Shown here piece by piece: positions 1 through 7,389 of a DNA stretch of 7,493 nucleotides. The translations under genes were made by a program, and so were the position numbers. Numbering within the stretch: position 1 is the first letter of the stretch; every line of letters starts with the position of its first letter. Origin of the DNA: a virus (lineage: Duplodnaviria; Heunggongvirae; Uroviricota; Caudoviricetes); IMG/VR virus record IMGVR_UViG_3300029875_000118. The stretch is one strand, 5' to 3'. The notes under the pieces are model-generated. The model was not told where the DNA came from. It worked only from the letters and a program-made list of their open reading frames with translations, and searched no databases.

Positions 1-500
1 ATTTCTCCTACTTCCTCGGCAATCAATCCGTAGAATCCCCAGTCACGCCTGTCATTTTCGCATTGCGACCTGTACCACACAGGGCGCATCTTGAAAATGA
101 GATCGGCGTGCTCTGAATCTATCGTCTCTACTGAATGTTTATAGCGAATAGACGATGTTGACCGCAGTACAGACGAAATTGCGGGGTCAGGATTAAGATA
201 AAGATTTGCCGCCGCTGTAGTCGTGGCCAAATTCCATAAATAAAACGCTTCACGACCTGTCAGTGGATAAAAATCTCCCCCATAACGACCGCTTTCCAGA
301 TCATTCACTTCTACTTTGTTTTTGAGCTTATTATCCACTTCAGTTTTTGTGTATCTGGTACTGATATCCTGCTTTGCACTGGTCATATCAGTCTGAAGTG
401 TTGATACTTTTACGTTAATTGAGGAAATATCTTCCTTAGCTTTACTGACATCTCCCTTTAGCGTGGTGATGTCTCCTGGAATTACTGTCGATGTAGCCAT
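1..500 (-). CDS. Tail-fibre-like protein, N-terminal 166 codons (C-terminus beyond the left edge): coiled-coil-like N-terminus followed by a peptidase-S74-like (intramolecular chaperone) motif
   Basis: ATG at 498-500 with SD GGGAGA 4 nt upstream and the preceding gene's TAA stop 9 nt upstream. The frame is open through position 1: MATSTVIPGDITTLKGDVSKAKEDISSINVKVSTLQTDMTSAKQDISTRYTKTEVDNKLKNKVEVNDL...STSSIRYKHSVETIDSEHADLIFKMRPVWYRSQCENDRRDWGFYGLIAEEVGE. The segment 'S-x-R-x-K ... L-x-x-RPV-x-Y ... G(F/L)IA(E/Q)EV' resembles the start of the auto-cleaving chaperone domain found at the C-terminus of phage tail spikes and fibres. The ORF track misses it because it runs off the edge. Confidence 0.6.
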   Translation of the reverse strand, partial: MATSTVIPGDITTLKGDVSKAKEDISSINVKVSTLQTDMTSAKQDISTRYTKTEVDNKLKNKVEVNDLESGRYGGDFYPLTGREAFYLWNLATTTAAANLYLNPDPAISSVLRSTSSIRYKHSVETIDSEHADLIFKMRPVWYRSQCENDRRDWGFYGLIAEEVGE

Positions 501-509
501 TTGTCTCCC

Positions 510-791
510 TTACATCCAGCCACGAATTTGATGATCAATAGCAATTGCGTATTCATCGAATATTGACGGTATTTTGACATCATTAATGATGCGTACGTTT
601 ACAAAATATCCGTCCTCCTTAACACATACAGGATCACCACCTTCTGTTAGTTCGCCTGTTTCTTTGTATACGTCACCTATTACATCAATGAGAACATCGT
701 TCTGTATCATCTCGTCATCATAATAACCAATGCTATCCATAAAGGCCGAAAAGTCTGCCTTGTCTGTGAATTTGATAATTAAATCTCGCAT
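510..791 (-). CDS. Hypothetical small acidic protein (93 aa), translationally coupled to the fibre gene; possibly a fibre chaperone or accessory protein
   Basis: ORF MRDLIIKFTDKADFSAFMDSIGYYDDEMIQ...HQIRGWM. Its ATG (789-791) shares one base with the fibre TAA (791-793) in a TAATG arrangement. A strong SD, GGGAGAGG, lies 6 nt upstream inside the fibre 3' end. About 20 Asp/Glu against 8 Lys/Arg. I do not recognise the family. Confidence 0.65.
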   Translation of the reverse strand: MRDLIIKFTDKADFSAFMDSIGYYDDEMIQNDVLIDVIGDVYKETGELTEGGDPVCVKEDGYFVNVRIINDVKIPSIFDEYAIAIDHQIRGWM

Positions 792-3230
792 TATATTACC
801 TCTCCCATTTGCGCATCGGTTAATTCTTTATGCCATATACGAAAATTACGAATGTGACCAAAAAGATGACGTAGGCCGCTATTAGTCTGCCCCCCAATCC
901 TGAAGAAATAACCAGATTTGACACCGACATGATCCGTGGTTTTAGGAGTTCCATGCTGGGCATTGCTAACGAAATGCACATTACCAGATTCATTTAAAAC
1001 AAATCCAAGAACAGATTTTTGTTCAAATAATACTGGCGATACCGCGGCTACTGTACTACCGTTTTTATTGTACATTGTAACACCAGGAAATAATGTTGAA
1101 CTGATAGCAACACTTATATATTGACCCGGAGTTGTACTCCCACCACTGGTATCAAAAACTCGTGGTGCTGCATTTGGCGTTTCGTTCCAGTTTGTATGAA
1201 CTTCAGCTAGAAATGTTAAAGGTGGTGTACCGATATTGTTATTTGTTGGTATATTCACCATATCACTGGCTCTTGTGACTGGCGTTGCCTCAGTAATAAT
1301 AAACGAAGAAGCGCACGAACCGCCTTCGACCTGAGGAGTTGCAACATAAATATAATCATCTGCACCAGTGCCACCCCCTTTTGGTGGTGCATATTGCACC
1401 ATCGCACCGATCATATTTTCTGTATCAAGTGCCTTAATTGTTGCCTCAAAGAAAATCCATTTGCTTGCTTCATTTTTAACAGCCCTTGCAGTAATACGAC
1501 TTGCAGCGCCGCCAGTTTTATCAATCGATAAATCTGTCATATTTAAGTAAGCATCACCCAGGAATTTGTAGGTAGAGCCATCATATTCTTCAAATCGTAA
1601 TCGACATCTTAAATTTGGAGTCCCACTTTGTACCCTGCATGAGATAGTTACATACTTTTCATCGCCGGTAACATCATATCCTTTGCTTCCAGATACTGTG
1701 ACAATAGAAATGGCTGAGGTTTGCCCCACCATTTCTGGTTTTAATGTGAATTTTGCGTACTGGAAACCAAAATCATCTACACCTGATGTATTTAAAATCA
1801 TATTTGATGACTTGTTCCACTTTGATGGATTTGTGCTGTTTATTAACAGGTTTGTACGCTGCCCTTCAATCAGCAATCCATACTTTTCAAAGCGAGGTTC
1901 ATCGATTGCAGCCTCTGTCAGCACACCAGATTTATTAATATAGGTTGCTTTCGATGCGCGTTTAAACTTTACAATCTTGTCGCCAGGCATTGTTATTTCA
2001 TCGTCGCCAATAACAATCTTTTTATATGATGGCGAAAAGCCCGTAATCATATCCAGTGAATCGTTAAATGGTATCCACACATCAGGAAGCGGCTGTAATA
2101 CATATTTATACGGTTCTGCTGCCTGGCTTGCGTACTCTCTGGCTGCGTCTTCACTTGCTTTAGCTGCTGTCTGGCTTGCAGCGGATGCTTTCGCCGAGTT
2201 CGCCGCCGCAGTCTCGCTCGCCTTTGCGTTGGTTTCACTGGTTTTTGCAGCTTTTTGACTATTTGCTGATGCAGTGGCAGAAGCAGCCGCCGCACTTGCA
2301 GAACCAGCTGCGGCACTCTCGCTTTCAGCTGCTGCATCCTGACTACTTTTCGCCGCAGTTTCACTGGCTTTAGCGTTCGTTTCGCTGGTCTTCGCTGCCG
2401 TCTGACTGGACTTTGCGTTAGTTTCGCTAGTCTTCGCTGCTTTCTGGCTGTTAGCCGCAGCAGTTGCTGATCCAGCTGCTGAAGTCGCAGAACCGGCTGC
2501 CGCGCTCTCGCTTTCGGCTGCTGCATTCTGGCTATTNNNNNNNNNNNNNNNNNNNNNNNNNNNNNNNNNNNNNNNNNNNNNNNNNNNNNNNNNNNNNNNN
2601 NGCCGTCTGGCTGGACTTTGCGTTGGTTTCGCTCGTCTTTGCTGCTGTCTCGCTATTTTTCGCGTTGGTTTCGCTCGTCTTTGCTGCTGTCTCGCTATTT
2701 TTCGCGTTGGTTTCTGATTTTTTGGCTGCTGTCGCGGAGTTTGCCGATGCAGTCTGTGAGGCCGCTGCCGCCTGTGCGCTGTTACCTGCATTCGTCTCTG
2801 ACGTTTTCGCCGCGTTCTTCGATGATGCCGCTGCAGTTTCGGATTTCTTTGCCGCCGCTGCGCTCTGAGAGGCGGCTTCGGCGTTGCGTGCCGCTTCTTC
2901 CACCATTGCCTCAAAACGACGCAATGCCTCCGGCATGACATCCTCTTCCGTCATGGCACCGAGAAAATCATTCAGCGTACCTGGTCTGGAACCTTCATAG
3001 ACGGTAATGGTCCCGGCATGTGAAGGCGGAAAACCTTCAACCAGCAGGATAACGCTGTACTGGCCATACTCAACATCCATACTGTAACGCCCGGCTTCAT
3101 CCGGATTTTCTGAGGCCACCGTGTTTACCACAACCGTGGTGCTGTTACGTTTTGCTTTGAGCTGAATGGTGCAGTTCTGTATCGGTTTTCCTGCACCGTC
3201 TTTCAGCACACCTGAAATCTGTACTGCCAT
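791..3230 (-). CDS. stf: Side tail fibre protein (lambda Stf-like N-terminus and repeat shaft, non-lambda distal domain); interrupted by an N-run with an apparent frame change
   Basis: The N-terminal frame reads (MN)MAVQISGVLKDGAGKPIQNCTIQLKAKRNSTTVVVNTVASENPDEAGRYSMDVEYGQYSVILLVEGFPPSHAGTITVYEG..., which matches the lambda Stf N-terminus as I recall it. GGAG lies 5 nt upstream of the ATG at 3228-3230; the ORF-track start at 3236 sits inside that spacer. Ala/Ser/Thr/Glu-rich repeats (KTSETNAKSSQTAAKTSETNAK...) run into the N-run at 2537-2601. The same repeat protein resumes in a different frame after the gap and continues to a TAA at 791-793, ending ...GHIRNFRIWHKELTDAQMGEVI. The two ORF-track pieces (2532..3236 and 791..2941) are therefore one gene. 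The Arg-rich N-terminal part of the 716-aa ORF (2602..2941) is an off-frame artefact. Confidence 0.8.
2270..2536. repeat. Imperfect long-period direct repeat (about 189 bp, about 63 codons) in the fibre shaft-coding region
   Basis: The segment beginning gcagaaccagctgcggcactctcgctttcagctgctgcatcctgact (from 2298) recurs with a few mismatches from 2487 (gcagaaccggctgccgcgctctcgctttcggctgctgcattctggct). The protein shows the matching repeat ...AAAESESAAAGSA...NSQKAAKTSETNAK... Confidence 0.8.
2537..2601. other. Run of 65 N (assembly gap or masked bases) inside the repeat region of the fibre gene
   Basis: Directly visible. The true coding frame differs on the two sides of the run. Confidence 0.99.
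2620..2703. repeat. Perfect 42-bp tandem duplication (two copies) inside the fibre shaft-coding region
   Basis: 2620-2661 and 2662-2703 are identical (gcgttggtttcgctcgtctttgctgctgtctcgctatttttc), encoding a 14-aa unit of the TSETNAKNSETAAK type. Degenerate copies flank it. Confidence 0.9.
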
Positions 3231-3240
3231 ATTCACTCCA

Positions 3241-3269
3241 CAAATAAAAAAGGCACCATTTCTGGTGCC
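3241..3269 (-). terminator. Rho-independent terminator-like hairpin between J and the side tail fibre gene
   Basis: On the minus strand: GGCACCA-GAAA-TGGTGCC (7-bp GC-rich stem, GNRA-type tetraloop) followed immediately by TTTTTTATTTG. It sits 20 nt after the J stop and directly upstream of the fibre RBS (GGAG) and start. It is probably leaky, since the fibre gene has no room for its own promoter. Confidence 0.55.
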
Positions 3270-3288
3270 CGAATTTGGGTTTTAAAAT

Positions 3289-6200
3289 TCAACTGATACG
3301 GATACCGGCTGTTGATTTCTTCATCACGACAACAAGAAGGTCGCTGATACTGGTCGTTGGCGTCCAGTTATTAGCACCATATGAAGAAACATTGAAAGTC
3401 AGGGTGACATGACCGTGTCCGGCAGGCATATCAATGACGGATGAAAATACCCTGCTGACATCCGTCGCGGGTTGCTGAAAGATTTCCTGTCCGTTCTTCA
3501 GCACCTGCAGCTTACAGGTTGAATACCAGTATGACTGTTGGTTGTTGCTGTTGAAGTTTTCATGCTTACCACCGCGAAACAGAACGGGTGGGATTACTAT
3601 CTGACGGTCAAAAGCCTGGTCATCGTACACAGTGACCGTTATTGTACCGCTGGCATAACTGCCATTTCTCGGAAAGGCTTTTCCCACCGTTTTGACAATA
3701 TCACCTTCAATCTGGTTGGCAGACAGTTTTCCCAGAATCCGACAGTTCTGGTTAATCGTGACATTGTTGAGCGTCCCGGAGTTCGCATTCACGTTACCGC
3801 TGATATCGGCATTTTTCGCCGTCAGCCGCCCGTCCGGTGTCAGGGAAAATACCGGAGGATTGCCGCCGCTGGTAATGGTGGGAGCCGTCAGATACTTCAG
3901 GAACACTTCGTTCATGAATATCTGGTTGCCCTGCGCCACAAACATCGGTGTTTCATTCCCGTTTGCCGGGTCAATAAACGCGATACGATTGGCGGCAACC
4001 AGAAACTGGCTCAGTTTGCCTTCCTCTGTATCCTCCATGCTGAGGCCAAGCCCCGCGACATAATGCTTACCGTCTTCGGTCTGCTCAATTTTGACGCCCC
4101 ACATGGCATTCCATTTATCGTTGGCGTCTTTCCACTCTTTCGAAAACTCATCCAGTCTGCTGGCGTTATCCTCCGTCAGGTCGACTTTTTCCAGCAGCTC
4201 TTTACCGAGATGGGATTCGGTTATCTGGCCTTTGAAAAAATCCAGGTAACCTTCCGCATCATCGCTCGCCCGACCGACGGCTTCCACGAATGCTGATTTG
4301 CCAACGGTGTTCACACTGCGAACGTAAAAATAATAATCATGGCCAGGCTTGATATTGATACTGGCGGCTATCCAGTACAGCGCCGTGCCAAGATAACGCG
4401 CGCTGGTTTCAACCTGCCTGATATCGGTAATCCGCTTTTCCGAGAACCAGAACTCAAACTGTACCGTCGGGTCATAAACCGCAAGATGCGGCGTGGCGGT
4501 TATCTGAAAATAGCCCGGCGTCAGCTCAATCCGCGATGGCGCTGCCGGTGCGGCAATCCGGAACGATACCGACGCCGGATCCCCCTGCTGTCCCCACGCA
4601 TTTACCGCCCGGACTGTCAGCCTGTAGTTCCCCAGCGCCAGTTGCGTGAAGCGGTATGTGGTTTCCGTCGTCCTGGCCGTGCTGACCAGTCGCTCACTGC
4701 CATCGTCCGCTGCCACGGTCAGGCGAAGCAGGAAGCTCACGCCCTTCACCACCTTCGGCGTGTCCCAGCGCGCCAGCACCTGATATTCCCCGCTGTCAGC
4801 GGTGACTTCTGCGGTCAGGTGCTGCACCGCTGGCGGCGTGACACCGTTCACCGTTCCGCTCTGGTCGCCGTCAAAGTGCGCCCCGTTATCCACGATGGCT
4901 TCTTTCTCCGGTACATGCTGCACGGCAGTGATGGCATACGTGCCGTCGTCGTTCTCACGGATACTCACACAGCGGAACAGGCGCTGGCGCAGCGTCGGCA
5001 GCTTCAGCCCCCACACGCTGTACTCGGCAACGCCGTCAGGAACCCGGCTCACTTTCACCTTCACGCCGTCGGTGACGGACTGGACCTCCACGCTGACCGG
5101 ATTCCCCTGCCCGTCAACCAGGCTTATCAGCGTGGTGCCGGAGGATGGCAGCGTGATTTCACGGTCGAGCGTCAGCGTCCGGGTCTGGCGGTTCACCGCC
5201 AGCACGCGCCCGCCGATGCTGATCCCCGCATAGTCATCATCACAGATTTCAATAACATCGCCCGGTACATGGCGAAGCCCTTCGGCACCCACGCTGAAGT
5301 CCACGGTCTGCGTTTCCAGCAGCTCCGTTTTAATCAGCCACAGCCCGGCGCGGTGTGCCTGCCCCCGGCTGGTACAGCCAAAGGCATCCATTTTCGTGAC
5401 GTTACGACCGTAACGGCGAATGGCCTGCGTATCCTCCACAAGCTCTGTCGCCGTCTCCCAGCCGTTATTCGGGTCAATCCAGTTCACCTCAACGGCATTA
5501 TGGCGGTCCTTCAGGGCGCTGAAGCTGTAGCGGAACGGCGCGCCATCATCCGGCATCACCACATTACTGCGGTTATAGGTCCACACCTTATCCGACGGTC
5601 GGTCCTGCACGAACGTCAGCGTCTGCCCGTTCCATACCGGCATACAGCGCATTGCCGAGCAGAAATCACTGAGAACATCCCACGCCTTACGCTGTGTGGT
5701 CAGGTAGGCATTACAGGAAATGCACGGCTCCGTGCCACCAAAACCGTCCGGCACCGACTGGTCGCAATACTGGCCGATGACATACAGCGCCCATTTGTCC
5801 ACATCCGCCGCACCAAGACGTTTCCCCATGCCGTAGCGCGGATGGGTCAGCATATCCCACAGACACCAGGCCATGTTGTTGCTGTATGCTGGCTTAAACG
5901 TTCCGTCCCAGATACCGCTGTATTGCCGCGTCTGCGGGTTATAGTTCGACGGCACCTGCAGAATGCGCCCGCGAAGATGATAATTACGGCTCACCTGCTG
6001 ACTGCCGAACTGTTCCGAGTCCACCTGCACGCCGACCAGTGCCGTGTTCGGGTAGCACTGTTTCACATCNNNNNNNNNNNNNNNNNNNNNNNNNNTGTTC
6101 TGCAGCTGGTCTGTGGTGCTGTCCGGCGTCATCCTGCGCATCCGGATATTAAACGGGCGCGGCGGCAGGTTACCCACCACCACCGAGGCCAGATACTGCG

Positions 6201-6681
6201 AGGTGGTTTTGCCCTTAATGGTGATGTCTTTTTCCGTCACCCAGCCACCGTTACGCTGTATCTGAACCAGCAGGCGGACTTCCGACGGATTCCTGTCCCC
6301 CTTTGAGGTGGTTTCCACCAGTGTCTGCACGCCGAAAGTAAAACGCAGACGGTCAATGTTTGCCGACGTGATGGTCCGGGTGATCGGCGTGTCATATTTC
6401 ACTTCTGTACCGAGCACCGTCTCGGAGCCGGAGGATTCAAACCCCTCCGGCGGAGTCTGCTCCTGCTCACCTGCCCGGAACACCACCGTGACGCCGGAGA
6501 TGTTGGTATTCCCCTCAGTGTCCAGCACTGGCGTACTGTTCAGCAGCACGCTTTTTAATCCATCCACCGGACCGTCAATCGGCCCTTCGCTGATGGCATC
6601 GATCACACTCAGCAACTGCGTGGACTTCAGGTTGTCCTTCGCTTCGCGCGGGGTATGCCCCTTACTGCTGCCTTTACCCAT
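3289..6681 (-). CDS. J: Host specificity protein J (tail tip / central tail fibre, lambda gpJ family)
   Basis: 1130-aa [41 protein letters not shown]...AGIRIS with TGA stop at 3289-3291. GGAG lies about 8 nt upstream of the ATG. The length and sequence over most of the protein match lambda gpJ as I recall it. It contains a 25-nt N-run that keeps the frame (9 X codons). Confidence 0.95.
6070..6094. other. Run of 25 N (unresolved or masked bases) inside gene J; reading frame is preserved across it
   Basis: Directly visible. The J translation continues in frame on both sides (...TDQLQN-X9-DVKQCYPNT...). Confidence 0.99.
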
Positions 6682-6703
6682 TCTTCACGCTCCATAAACG
6701 ACA

Positions 6704-6723
6704 AAACCGCCCGCAGGCGGTTT
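6704..6723. promoter_or_regulatory. Perfect 8-bp inverted repeat (AAACCGCC-cgca-GGCGGTTT) in the I-J intergenic spacer; possible RNA stem-loop of unknown function
   Basis: Read directly from the sequence at 6704-6711 and 6716-6723, within the 60-nt spacer between the I stop and the J start. There is no long U-tract downstream on the coding (minus) strand, so it is not a canonical intrinsic terminator. Confidence 0.3.
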
Positions 6724-6741
6724 CACATAAAACATTTTGCA

Positions 6742-7389
6742 TCAGCGACCAATCACCACAACCTGACCACCATCACCTTCATCTGCCGTGCTGATCTCCT
6801 GAGATACCACTCGCGACCCCACACGCATTTCACCGTACAGAACGGGCAGAACATTGCCCTGGGCAACCATGTTATCCAGTGACGAGAAATACGTGTTCTG
6901 TTTGCCGTTATCTGTACTGGCTGCCGTGGGCGTCCGGGCTTTCGGTGCCAGCATCTGCGCCACACCACCCAGGATCATACTGGCCCCAGCCGCATACATG
7001 CCCGATAAAGCCGCGGCACCCAGCCAGCCTGCGGGGTTCCACCACGCCACCGCAATCAGCGCCGCACCCAGCACCGCCTGAAAAACACCGCCACTTTTGG
7101 CTCCCGCCAGACGCGGCACGATGTGGATCACTGCACCATTTGCCAGCGGCTCATTAAGACGGGCAGATAATTCGGTTTCACCTGCATCACGCCCGGCAAT
7201 GCGCACCTGATACCAGCCGTCATTCAGTTTCTGACGAAACGCCGGGACCTGTGTGGACAGCGCCCGGATGGCTTCAGCCCCCGTTTTCACACGAAGGTCG
7301 ATGCGGCGGCCAAATCGTTGCAAATCCCCGTAAAGGCAGATGCGTGCCATGCCTGGTGACGCCAGAGGGAGTGTGTGCGTCGCTGCCAT
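6742..7389 (-). CDS. I: Tail assembly protein I (lambda gpI-like)
   Basis: 215-aa ORF MAATHTLPLASPGMARICLYGDLQRFGRR...SQEISTADEGDGGQVVVIGR with a Gly/Ala-rich hydrophobic segment in the middle. An SD-like GAGAGAGG lies about 10 nt upstream of the ATG at 7389. Its position between K and J and the N- and C-terminal sequence match lambda gpI as I remember it. Confidence 0.88.
   Translation of the reverse strand: MAATHTLPLASPGMARICLYGDLQRFGRRIDLRVKTGAEAIRALSTQVPAFRQKLNDGWYQVRIAGRDAGETELSARLNEPLANGAVIHIVPRLAGAKSGGVFQAVLGAALIAVAWWNPAGWLGAAALSGMYAAGASMILGGVAQMLAPKARTPTAASTDNGKQNTYFSSLDNMVAQGNVLPVLYGEMRVGSRVVSQEISTADEGDGGQVVVIGR

Follow-up and report, generated by a model that had tools for sequence, protein, structure and literature searches.

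The small, highly acidic protein encoded on the minus strand at 510..791 of the window (the whole 7,493-nt stretch of tailed-phage DNA that was analysed) is very probably a dedicated partner of lectin-type fibre heads, to which it is functionally linked. Its gene directly follows the side tail fibre gene and was found to be linked to the lectin head of that fibre, travelling with the head as a cassette. A trans-acting assembly factor for the lectin head, perhaps remaining bound to it, was given about an even chance of being the correct description of this partner, and is favoured here over a structural joint for a distal fibre. We infer physical binding to the head, and an assembly role rather than another role there.

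The ORF encodes 93 amino acids, with its ATG at 791-789 and its stop codon at 512..510. This gene and all neighbouring genes in the window are on the minus strand. The fibre stop codon (TAA, 793..791) shares base 791 with the small gene, the last base of the stop being the A of the ATG, as expected for translational coupling. A Shine-Dalgarno (SD) sequence, GGGAGAGG (799..806), is located 7 nt before the ATG, within the last fibre codons. Start and SD were conserved among relatives, in which the small gene overlaps the fibre stop by 1 nt or 4 nt. In the gaps separating the fibre, small and third genes, the coding strand showed no promoter-like or terminator-like site. The protein contains 20 acidic (D+E) and 8 basic (K+R) residues, for a net charge of −12, with a computed pI of 4.10 and a mass of 10.7 kDa. 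The first-pass annotation, made from the sequence alone, had described a 93-residue, highly acidic product of net charge about −12 with a strong SD and a start overlapping the fibre stop, and was accurate on each of these points, although it did not give the strand. Acidity was kept in all members compared (net charge −9 to −17), and the conserved motifs were M[RK]D..LKF.D, D.IG..Y, DGYFVN[VI]R and P[LI]R.W.

The small ORF is a genuine, conserved and constrained gene. Pairwise dN/dS was 0.17-0.33, and approximately 0.32 in pairwise comparison across 49 distinct alleles; the gene is under purifying selection. Relative to the closest phage, IdasGreatGrand (510-791 compared with 6510-6791 of its region, L001), DNA identity was 84-94% in the small gene and 96-100% in the flanks, and dS of the small gene was 0.39 (vs 0.09-0.14) with a dN/dS of 0.17. 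This dip in identity is a short recombination patch in an otherwise near-identical cassette. Positive selection was considered as a cause of the divergence and ruled out, because a high dS with a dN/dS of 0.17 indicates recombination and not adaptive change. It is scarcely conceivable that the ORF arose by chance, or is a decaying minus-strand remnant rather than a functional gene: only its small size and its missing annotation speak for this, whereas conservation is full-length down to 30% identity, dN/dS lies in the range given above, and SD and start are kept. The overlapping plus-strand ORFs (574..723 and 730..885) were without support. An ORF that is not translated or not conserved, which the first-pass annotation had allowed for, was thus not what was found.

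A profile search placed the protein in PHROG 1361, a family already known but not characterised (E = 3.1e-40, 137 bits; profile positions 1-92 of 92 aligned to residues 1-93). PHROG 1361 and the related phrog_18574 are phage families of unknown function, and members carry the RefSeq/PGAP name 'hypothetical protein'. No sequence relatives were found in Pfam (E ≤ 1), NCBIfam or PDB, and no experimental work on any family member was found in the literature. Homologues were detected by tblastn in 181 phage records when the window protein was the query and in 211 when a T5-like member was used. A large protein collection contained 199 clusters at 90% identity, all of approximately 93 aa. An exhaustive search of 1.84 billion cluster representatives returned only 44 clusters at 50% identity, and a scan of one genome per bacterial species returned three loci, of which two came from Escherichia genomes and the third from a contig assigned to a Collinsella MAG. 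From these 44 clusters and three loci the family therefore appears narrow, belonging to enterobacterial phages and prophages. Two longer proteins from the representative search were not treated as homologues: a 915-aa protein matched only via a repeated 'DGYVFVRVR'-like string, and a 2,928-aa protein matched over a 28-residue stretch only.

An AlphaFold2 model of the small protein was built from a 19-sequence alignment (pLDDT 81, pTM 0.67). The modelled fold comprised a strand, two helices and four more strands (beta-alpha-alpha-beta4) in an alpha/beta sandwich. The last 23 residues had pLDDT values of 60-66, compared with 84-89 elsewhere, though they carry the conserved P[LI]R.W motif. Being conserved yet of low confidence in the model, this C-terminus would fit a segment that becomes ordered on a partner. 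Foldseek searches with the model returned nothing below E = 0.02 against the PDB, and only uncharacterised uncultured-phage proteins among predicted viral structures. As modelled, the generic alpha/beta fold yields no functional lead. The earlier statement that no motif could be assigned was confirmed by these searches, the one family matched having no assigned function. The remote-homology and structural search proposed with it gave no significant structural neighbour, and no homology to an unrelated, characterised family was found.

The gene upstream encodes a side tail fibre (Stf-like; 791..3236, minus strand). It was listed as two overlapping ORFs (791..2941 and 2532..3236) because a 65-nt N run at 2537-2601 breaks the frame; it was treated as one gene across the masked run, the homologues (804-815 aa) being single genes. 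Near its end, a 'Phage head spike fiber' domain (NF048003; 1268..1873, minus strand; NCBIfam E = 1e-16, 62 bits, cut-off 36) precedes a C-terminal LamG/ConA-like (lectin-like) head at 809..1264 on the same strand. The window's head matched Pfam Laminin_G_3 at E = 1.2e-4, which is below the gathering score; the same profile was matched by 12 of 18 diverse head homologues, at best with E = 5e-7 and over nearly its whole length. Within the final 200 fibre residues (809-1393), compared over loci L001-L090, the first ~75 and last ~35 residues were conserved and the ~90 between them were hypervariable. This head middle had a mean pairwise distance of about 50% even among prophages with 75-85% identical small proteins. 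Such a pattern is what a receptor-binding lectin head having exchangeable loops should show. The fibre C-terminal consensus was ...IRIGGQT..G.RHLFGH[IV]RN[FL]RIWHK.LTDAQ.GE... The last 160 residues of the head have a net charge of +1; charge complementarity between head and small protein was looked for and was not found. The distal domain had earlier been called novel, but homologous fibre ends have already been described. IrisVonRoten Gp22 has a C-terminal 'galectin-like domain' (PMC11990801), and a 'lectin-like head (D69)' was seen by cryo-EM in the homologous fibre of EmilHeitz (PMC12143355), with fibre maps at 7.3-9.5 Å (PMC12143355).

Genomic context was surveyed in an 88-locus set, comprising the 80 IMG/VR loci closest to the window, the window itself and seven annotated phage regions. 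Further loci comprised 48 of a 48%-identical subgroup (mEp460-type), nine more annotated regions and three contigs with 30-36%-identical members. Throughout the 88-locus set the small ORF overlapped the stop of a lectin-head fibre ORF by 1 or 4 nt, with the single exception of a locus in which the fibre was disrupted. The 48 mEp460-type loci had the same arrangement. All 16 annotated phage regions had the small gene directly after a LamG/ConA-like fibre end: the lambdoid phages IdasGreatGrand, PhiR49_1, mEp460, 21, 2E9 and ev243, together with Warwickvirus tunus and PeterMerian, Dhillonvirus rolling, Nonagvirus JenP1, Tequintavirus VSe12 and IrisVonRoten, and Vequintavirus LL12, are among the phages with the cassette. 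It thus spans six lineages of siphoviruses and myoviruses with otherwise unrelated genomes, and even the 30-36%-identical members on the three contigs still follow a Laminin_G_3-type fibre end. Searching by tblastn with the last 200 fibre residues returned 205 phage records, compared with 181-211 for the small protein, and the breakdown by organism name was nearly equal for head-bearing and small-protein records. The survey that had been suggested earlier, of whether homologues always follow LamG-type fibres, accordingly found them after such fibre ends in six lineages and down to 30% identity.

A natural swap was found between two Vequintavirus fibres. The fibres of rV5 (gp41) and LL12 (gp041) are 97% identical over the 500 N-proximal residues compared. 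The rV5 fibre (L141, 16200-20018) ends in an S74 intramolecular chaperone with the gene for a distal tail protein directly next, and neither the small protein nor the lectin head had a homologue in 30 kb of rV5 late genes. In LL12 (L007, 1-4333) the fibre has the lectin head as its end and the small gene comes next; the product of this small gene differs in its last ~40 residues from all other members. Taken together, the two endings therefore define the unit of exchange as the lectin head plus small gene against another tip plus built-in chaperone. The same replacement of S74 by the head has been reported for EmilHeitz versus MaxBurger, with cryo-EM (PMC12143355), and a small-gene homologue lies beside the lateral tail fibre gene of EmilHeitz. 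Read from the gene arrangements, such a swap would be expected if the small protein serves the head in trans as the C-terminal domain serves the alternative tip. The rV5 virion proteome was considered as evidence on the small protein and set aside as uninformative, rV5 being without the gene.

Downstream of the small gene, the window contains the 5' part (166 codons) of a third gene at 1..500 on the minus strand, cut by the window edge. From its ORF and conserved N-terminus it encodes a short, distal fibre-like protein. Its ATG (500-498) is in the same frame as the small gene and 9 nt after the small-gene stop, and the spacer GGGAGACAA is itself an SD (GGGAGA). A conserved N-terminus of ~20 aa (MATSTVIPGDITTLKGDVSK) is followed by a coiled-coil-like stretch, after which a Peptidase_S74 intramolecular chaperone domain begins (about 9..155, minus strand; E = 3e-4, just under the gathering score). 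The N-terminal consensus M[AV]T[SK]T[VI]IP.DI..LK was conserved across four phage lineages. The rest of the protein differs completely among relatives, being 234 or 346 aa with an S74 end, 351 aa in JenP1 and 574 aa in IrisVonRoten Gp24 (third-gene coordinates are 5796-6500 in L001 and 4789-6513 in L090). The conserved first ~20 residues look like a docking peptide. Some BASEL records call the third gene a 'putative lateral tail fiber chaperone'. Very little of the 234-aa protein would be left after S74 self-cleavage; candidate roles for it are a short distal fibre or a trans chaperone.

The third gene is part of the cassette in the window and in many lineages, and is absent in at least five. 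In phage 21, Lambda_2E9, ev243 and 46 of the 48 mEp460-type loci, fibre and small gene are followed by a small membrane protein without a distal fibre gene; the remaining two mEp460-type loci had no readable downstream ORF. A distal fibre gene was also missing beside the small gene in Dhillonvirus rolling, Vequintavirus LL12 and a distant P0159-type prophage. The small gene is thus independent of a distal fibre gene. PhiR55_1 presents a different combination, its small protein being 32%, its head ~34-38% and its third gene 89-95% identical to those of the window. Mantel correlations of small-protein distances were r = 0.80 with the third-gene N-terminus, 0.54 with the last 35 residues of the fibre and 0.08 with the head middle. 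Mean pairwise distance was 0.19 for the small protein and 0.50 for the variable head middle. By these comparisons, the head end, the small protein and the start of the distal fibre form one conserved block between two variable receptor-binding regions. The Mantel pattern was not read as co-evolution, because linkage alone could produce it.

It is possible, though on balance doubtful, that the small protein is a structural joint or adaptor which remains in the virion, located where the proximal fibre ends, and there forms or completes a socket for the N-terminal ~20 residues of the third protein. The outcome would be a two-part or branched fibre with a short or T-shaped distal part. The gene does lie between proximal and distal fibre genes in the window and in most E. 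coli prophage, Warwickvirus, Nonagvirus and Tequintavirus cassettes; distal proteins are alike only in their first ~20 residues; the Mantel r of 0.80 with the third-gene N-terminus at least matches the 0.54 for the fibre end; and one 30%-identical member accompanies a distal fibre whose N-terminus is different. IrisVonRoten Gp24 is a 'T-shaped' distal fibre, modelled by Humolli et al. as attached to the proximal Gp22 (PMC11990801), and the gene between them, bas32_0023, is a homologue of the small gene annotated 'tail fiber protein'. The role of its product is not discussed by Humolli et al. (PMC11990801). However, a position between proximal and distal fibre genes, though true of the window, is not general: it is false in 21, 2E9, ev243, the mEp460-type loci, rolling, LL12 and the P0159-type prophage, so that at least five lineages keep the small gene without an adjoining distal fibre gene. 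Most lineages without a distal fibre also keep the C-terminal motif. The Mantel signal is confounded by physical linkage, both flanks being adjacent to the small gene, and PhiR55_1 pairs a 32%-identical small protein with a near-unchanged distal protein. In AnnaHegner, moreover, a T-shaped fibre is reported to sit on a proximal fibre from the adjacent gene (Gp9, Gp10), with no gene number left for a small protein between them (PMC11990801). The more specific proposal of a permanent virion subunit, in which the small protein and the conserved last head strands form a universal socket for the 20-residue plug of interchangeable distal fibres, is considered unlikely. If true, it would explain how siphoviruses and myoviruses can have one proximal design in common and how distal receptor-binding modules can be exchanged freely; a fibre joint of this kind, from a fold without a known relative, would be new.

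An assembly factor is supported by the invariant synteny and the co-occurrence of head and small protein, by the rV5/LL12 cassette swap, by retention of the small gene without a distal fibre and the combination found in PhiR55_1, and by a constrained, coupled gene whose product has a conserved C-terminus of low pLDDT. Several observations weigh against it. Conservation is far higher in the small protein than in the head middle (0.19 vs 0.50; Mantel r = 0.08), whereas Tfa-type chaperones co-vary with the tip they fold, and lectin/ConA-like beta-sandwiches usually fold unaided. There is no sequence or fold similarity to known fibre chaperones, head and small protein are not electrostatically complementary, and the annotation of the IrisVonRoten copy as a 'tail fiber protein' would suit a structural role. 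Strict linkage to a carbohydrate-binding-type head could also be read as a sign that the acidic protein sits on the head's glycan-binding face as a cap or regulator, either in the producing cell, against premature polysaccharide binding or aggregation, or as a releasable mask on the free virion. Its acidity (net −9 to −17) might then mimic anionic surface glycans. Such a cap is improbable, however, since a mask of a variable site should co-vary with that site and the small protein does not co-vary with the hypervariable, presumed receptor-binding loops (r = 0.08); to our knowledge, there is no precedent. Acidity, and nothing else, also fits an unrelated passenger (moron), that is, a mimic of DNA or of a protein, or else an anti-defence factor, hitch-hiking beside the fibre gene, a role that had been raised earlier for small acidic phage proteins in general. 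This is highly improbable, and the strict late-operon synteny speaks against it: the small gene is a late one, is coupled to the fibre, is kept beside one head type in six lineages and is lost with that head. Mimics of the Ocr/ArdA type would be marked by early expression outside structural operons, whereas this gene is in a late fibre operon, and the small-protein model does not have a fold like those of known mimics.

The mechanism proposed for the assembly factor is as follows. The small gene is a genuine late gene that is transcribed together with the side tail fibre gene and translationally coupled to it, and the small protein would be made in step with each fibre chain. Its product, a small, soluble and very acidic alpha/beta protein, would work with the lectin-like fibre head by binding the conserved part of the head (its first and last strands) and not the hypervariable loops. 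It would be needed for correct folding or assembly of the head end of the trimeric fibre, and may stay bound after assembly. It would thereby fill the slot taken by Tfa in lambda, P2 and Mu, or by the C-terminal S74 chaperone in other fibre alleles. A dedicated chaperone or assembly factor for the distal domain, in the position where lambda has Tfa, had been proposed in the first-pass annotation. A factor dedicated to that domain is supported by the synteny, the co-occurrence and the rV5 swap; a chaperone as such would be one reading beside a bound subunit or joint.

The likeness to Tfa, gpG and gpU of lambda, P2 and Mu (Caudo_TAP, PF02413) is one of position and proposed job. Like them, the small gene comes directly after the fibre gene within one operon and can be exchanged together with a C-terminal module, and its product would help a distal end to fold and possibly stay bound. 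Tfa-type proteins are about 175-195 aa, whereas the small protein is half that size (93 aa), is predicted to be a single small alpha/beta domain without a PF02413 match (no Pfam match at E ≤ 1, no NCBIfam match), shows no co-variation with the variable tip region, and accompanies a monomeric lectin-type sandwich instead of an intertwined trimeric tip. The Peptidase_S74 domain belongs to the fibre chain and undergoes auto-cleavage, whereas the small protein is a separate polypeptide without S74 similarity; no S74 match was found in the 93 residues, the S74 domain of the window being in the third gene. T4 gp57A would be alike in being a small, acidic, trans-acting fibre helper, provided that an assembly factor is the right reading. 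It is a general fibre-trimerisation chaperone, all-helical, oligomeric and not tied to one fibre gene, whereas the small protein has no sequence match to it, is predicted to be alpha/beta and is strictly linked to one head type. T4 g35 and g36 sit between g34 and g37, as the small gene sits between proximal and distal fibre genes in the window, but there is no similarity to the gp35/gp36 joints. In sequence and in predicted fold, the small protein is unrelated to Tfa, gp57A, gp38 and S74. S74 is nevertheless its genetic alternative in the same Vequintavirus fibre (rV5 gp41 vs LL12 and EmilHeitz; PMC12143355). LtfA-LtfB branching in DT57C was rejected as a model, the fibre being of a different type with no small gene between the two (PMC10713586); ltfA and ltfB have adjacent gene numbers (gp108, gp107) with no room for one (PMC10713586). 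The Eligo lambda-chimera preprint was likewise set aside, P2 tips and not the lectin-head cassette having been used there.

The main relevance of these results is to phage fibre engineering and retargeting by tip swaps, and to the interpretation of fibre structures. Lectin-headed lateral fibres are common in coliphages and prophages, and several BASEL model phages carry the cassette. Should the small gene prove to be an obligatory head partner, transplants of these heads into chimeric lambda Stf, T5-like Ltf or rV5-like fibres must carry it, and structure predictions and cryo-EM fits of lectin-headed fibres should include its product. An assembly role, if true, would be a third solution for finishing a trimeric fibre, beside Tfa-type proteins and intramolecular chaperones, and PHROG 1361 would gain a function.

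Further upstream on the minus strand, the window contains a lambda I-like gene (6742..7389) and J (3289..6681), with a 26-nt N run at 6070-6095 inside J. A terminator-like hairpin and T run (3270..3251, minus strand) lies right after J and before the fibre gene, a feature also annotated in phage 21. IdasGreatGrand and PhiR49_1 have a lom gene between J and the fibre gene, whereas the window has none there. In lambdoid relatives the cassette is closed by a 95-97-aa predicted two-TM membrane protein (MDISPLLHALCA...), which would lie past the window edge. Its gene directly follows the small gene in phage 21 and mEp460 and follows the third gene in the window's relatives (examples are L003, 4292-4579; L088, 5688-5981; L148, 2792-3085); the protein may have a lysogenic-conversion or exclusion function.

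A near match to some part of the 1.4-kb region was present in 760 of 5,426 complete E. coli genomes. The 'Collinsella' MAG contig (L146) carries an E. coli prophage cassette and is probably mis-binned. Cassettes of rV5-like and T5-like coliphages, at 88-96% protein identity, were also present in Campylobacter (MG0656xx) and Listeria (OR847733, OR848352) phage records, which are probably mislabelled or contaminated.
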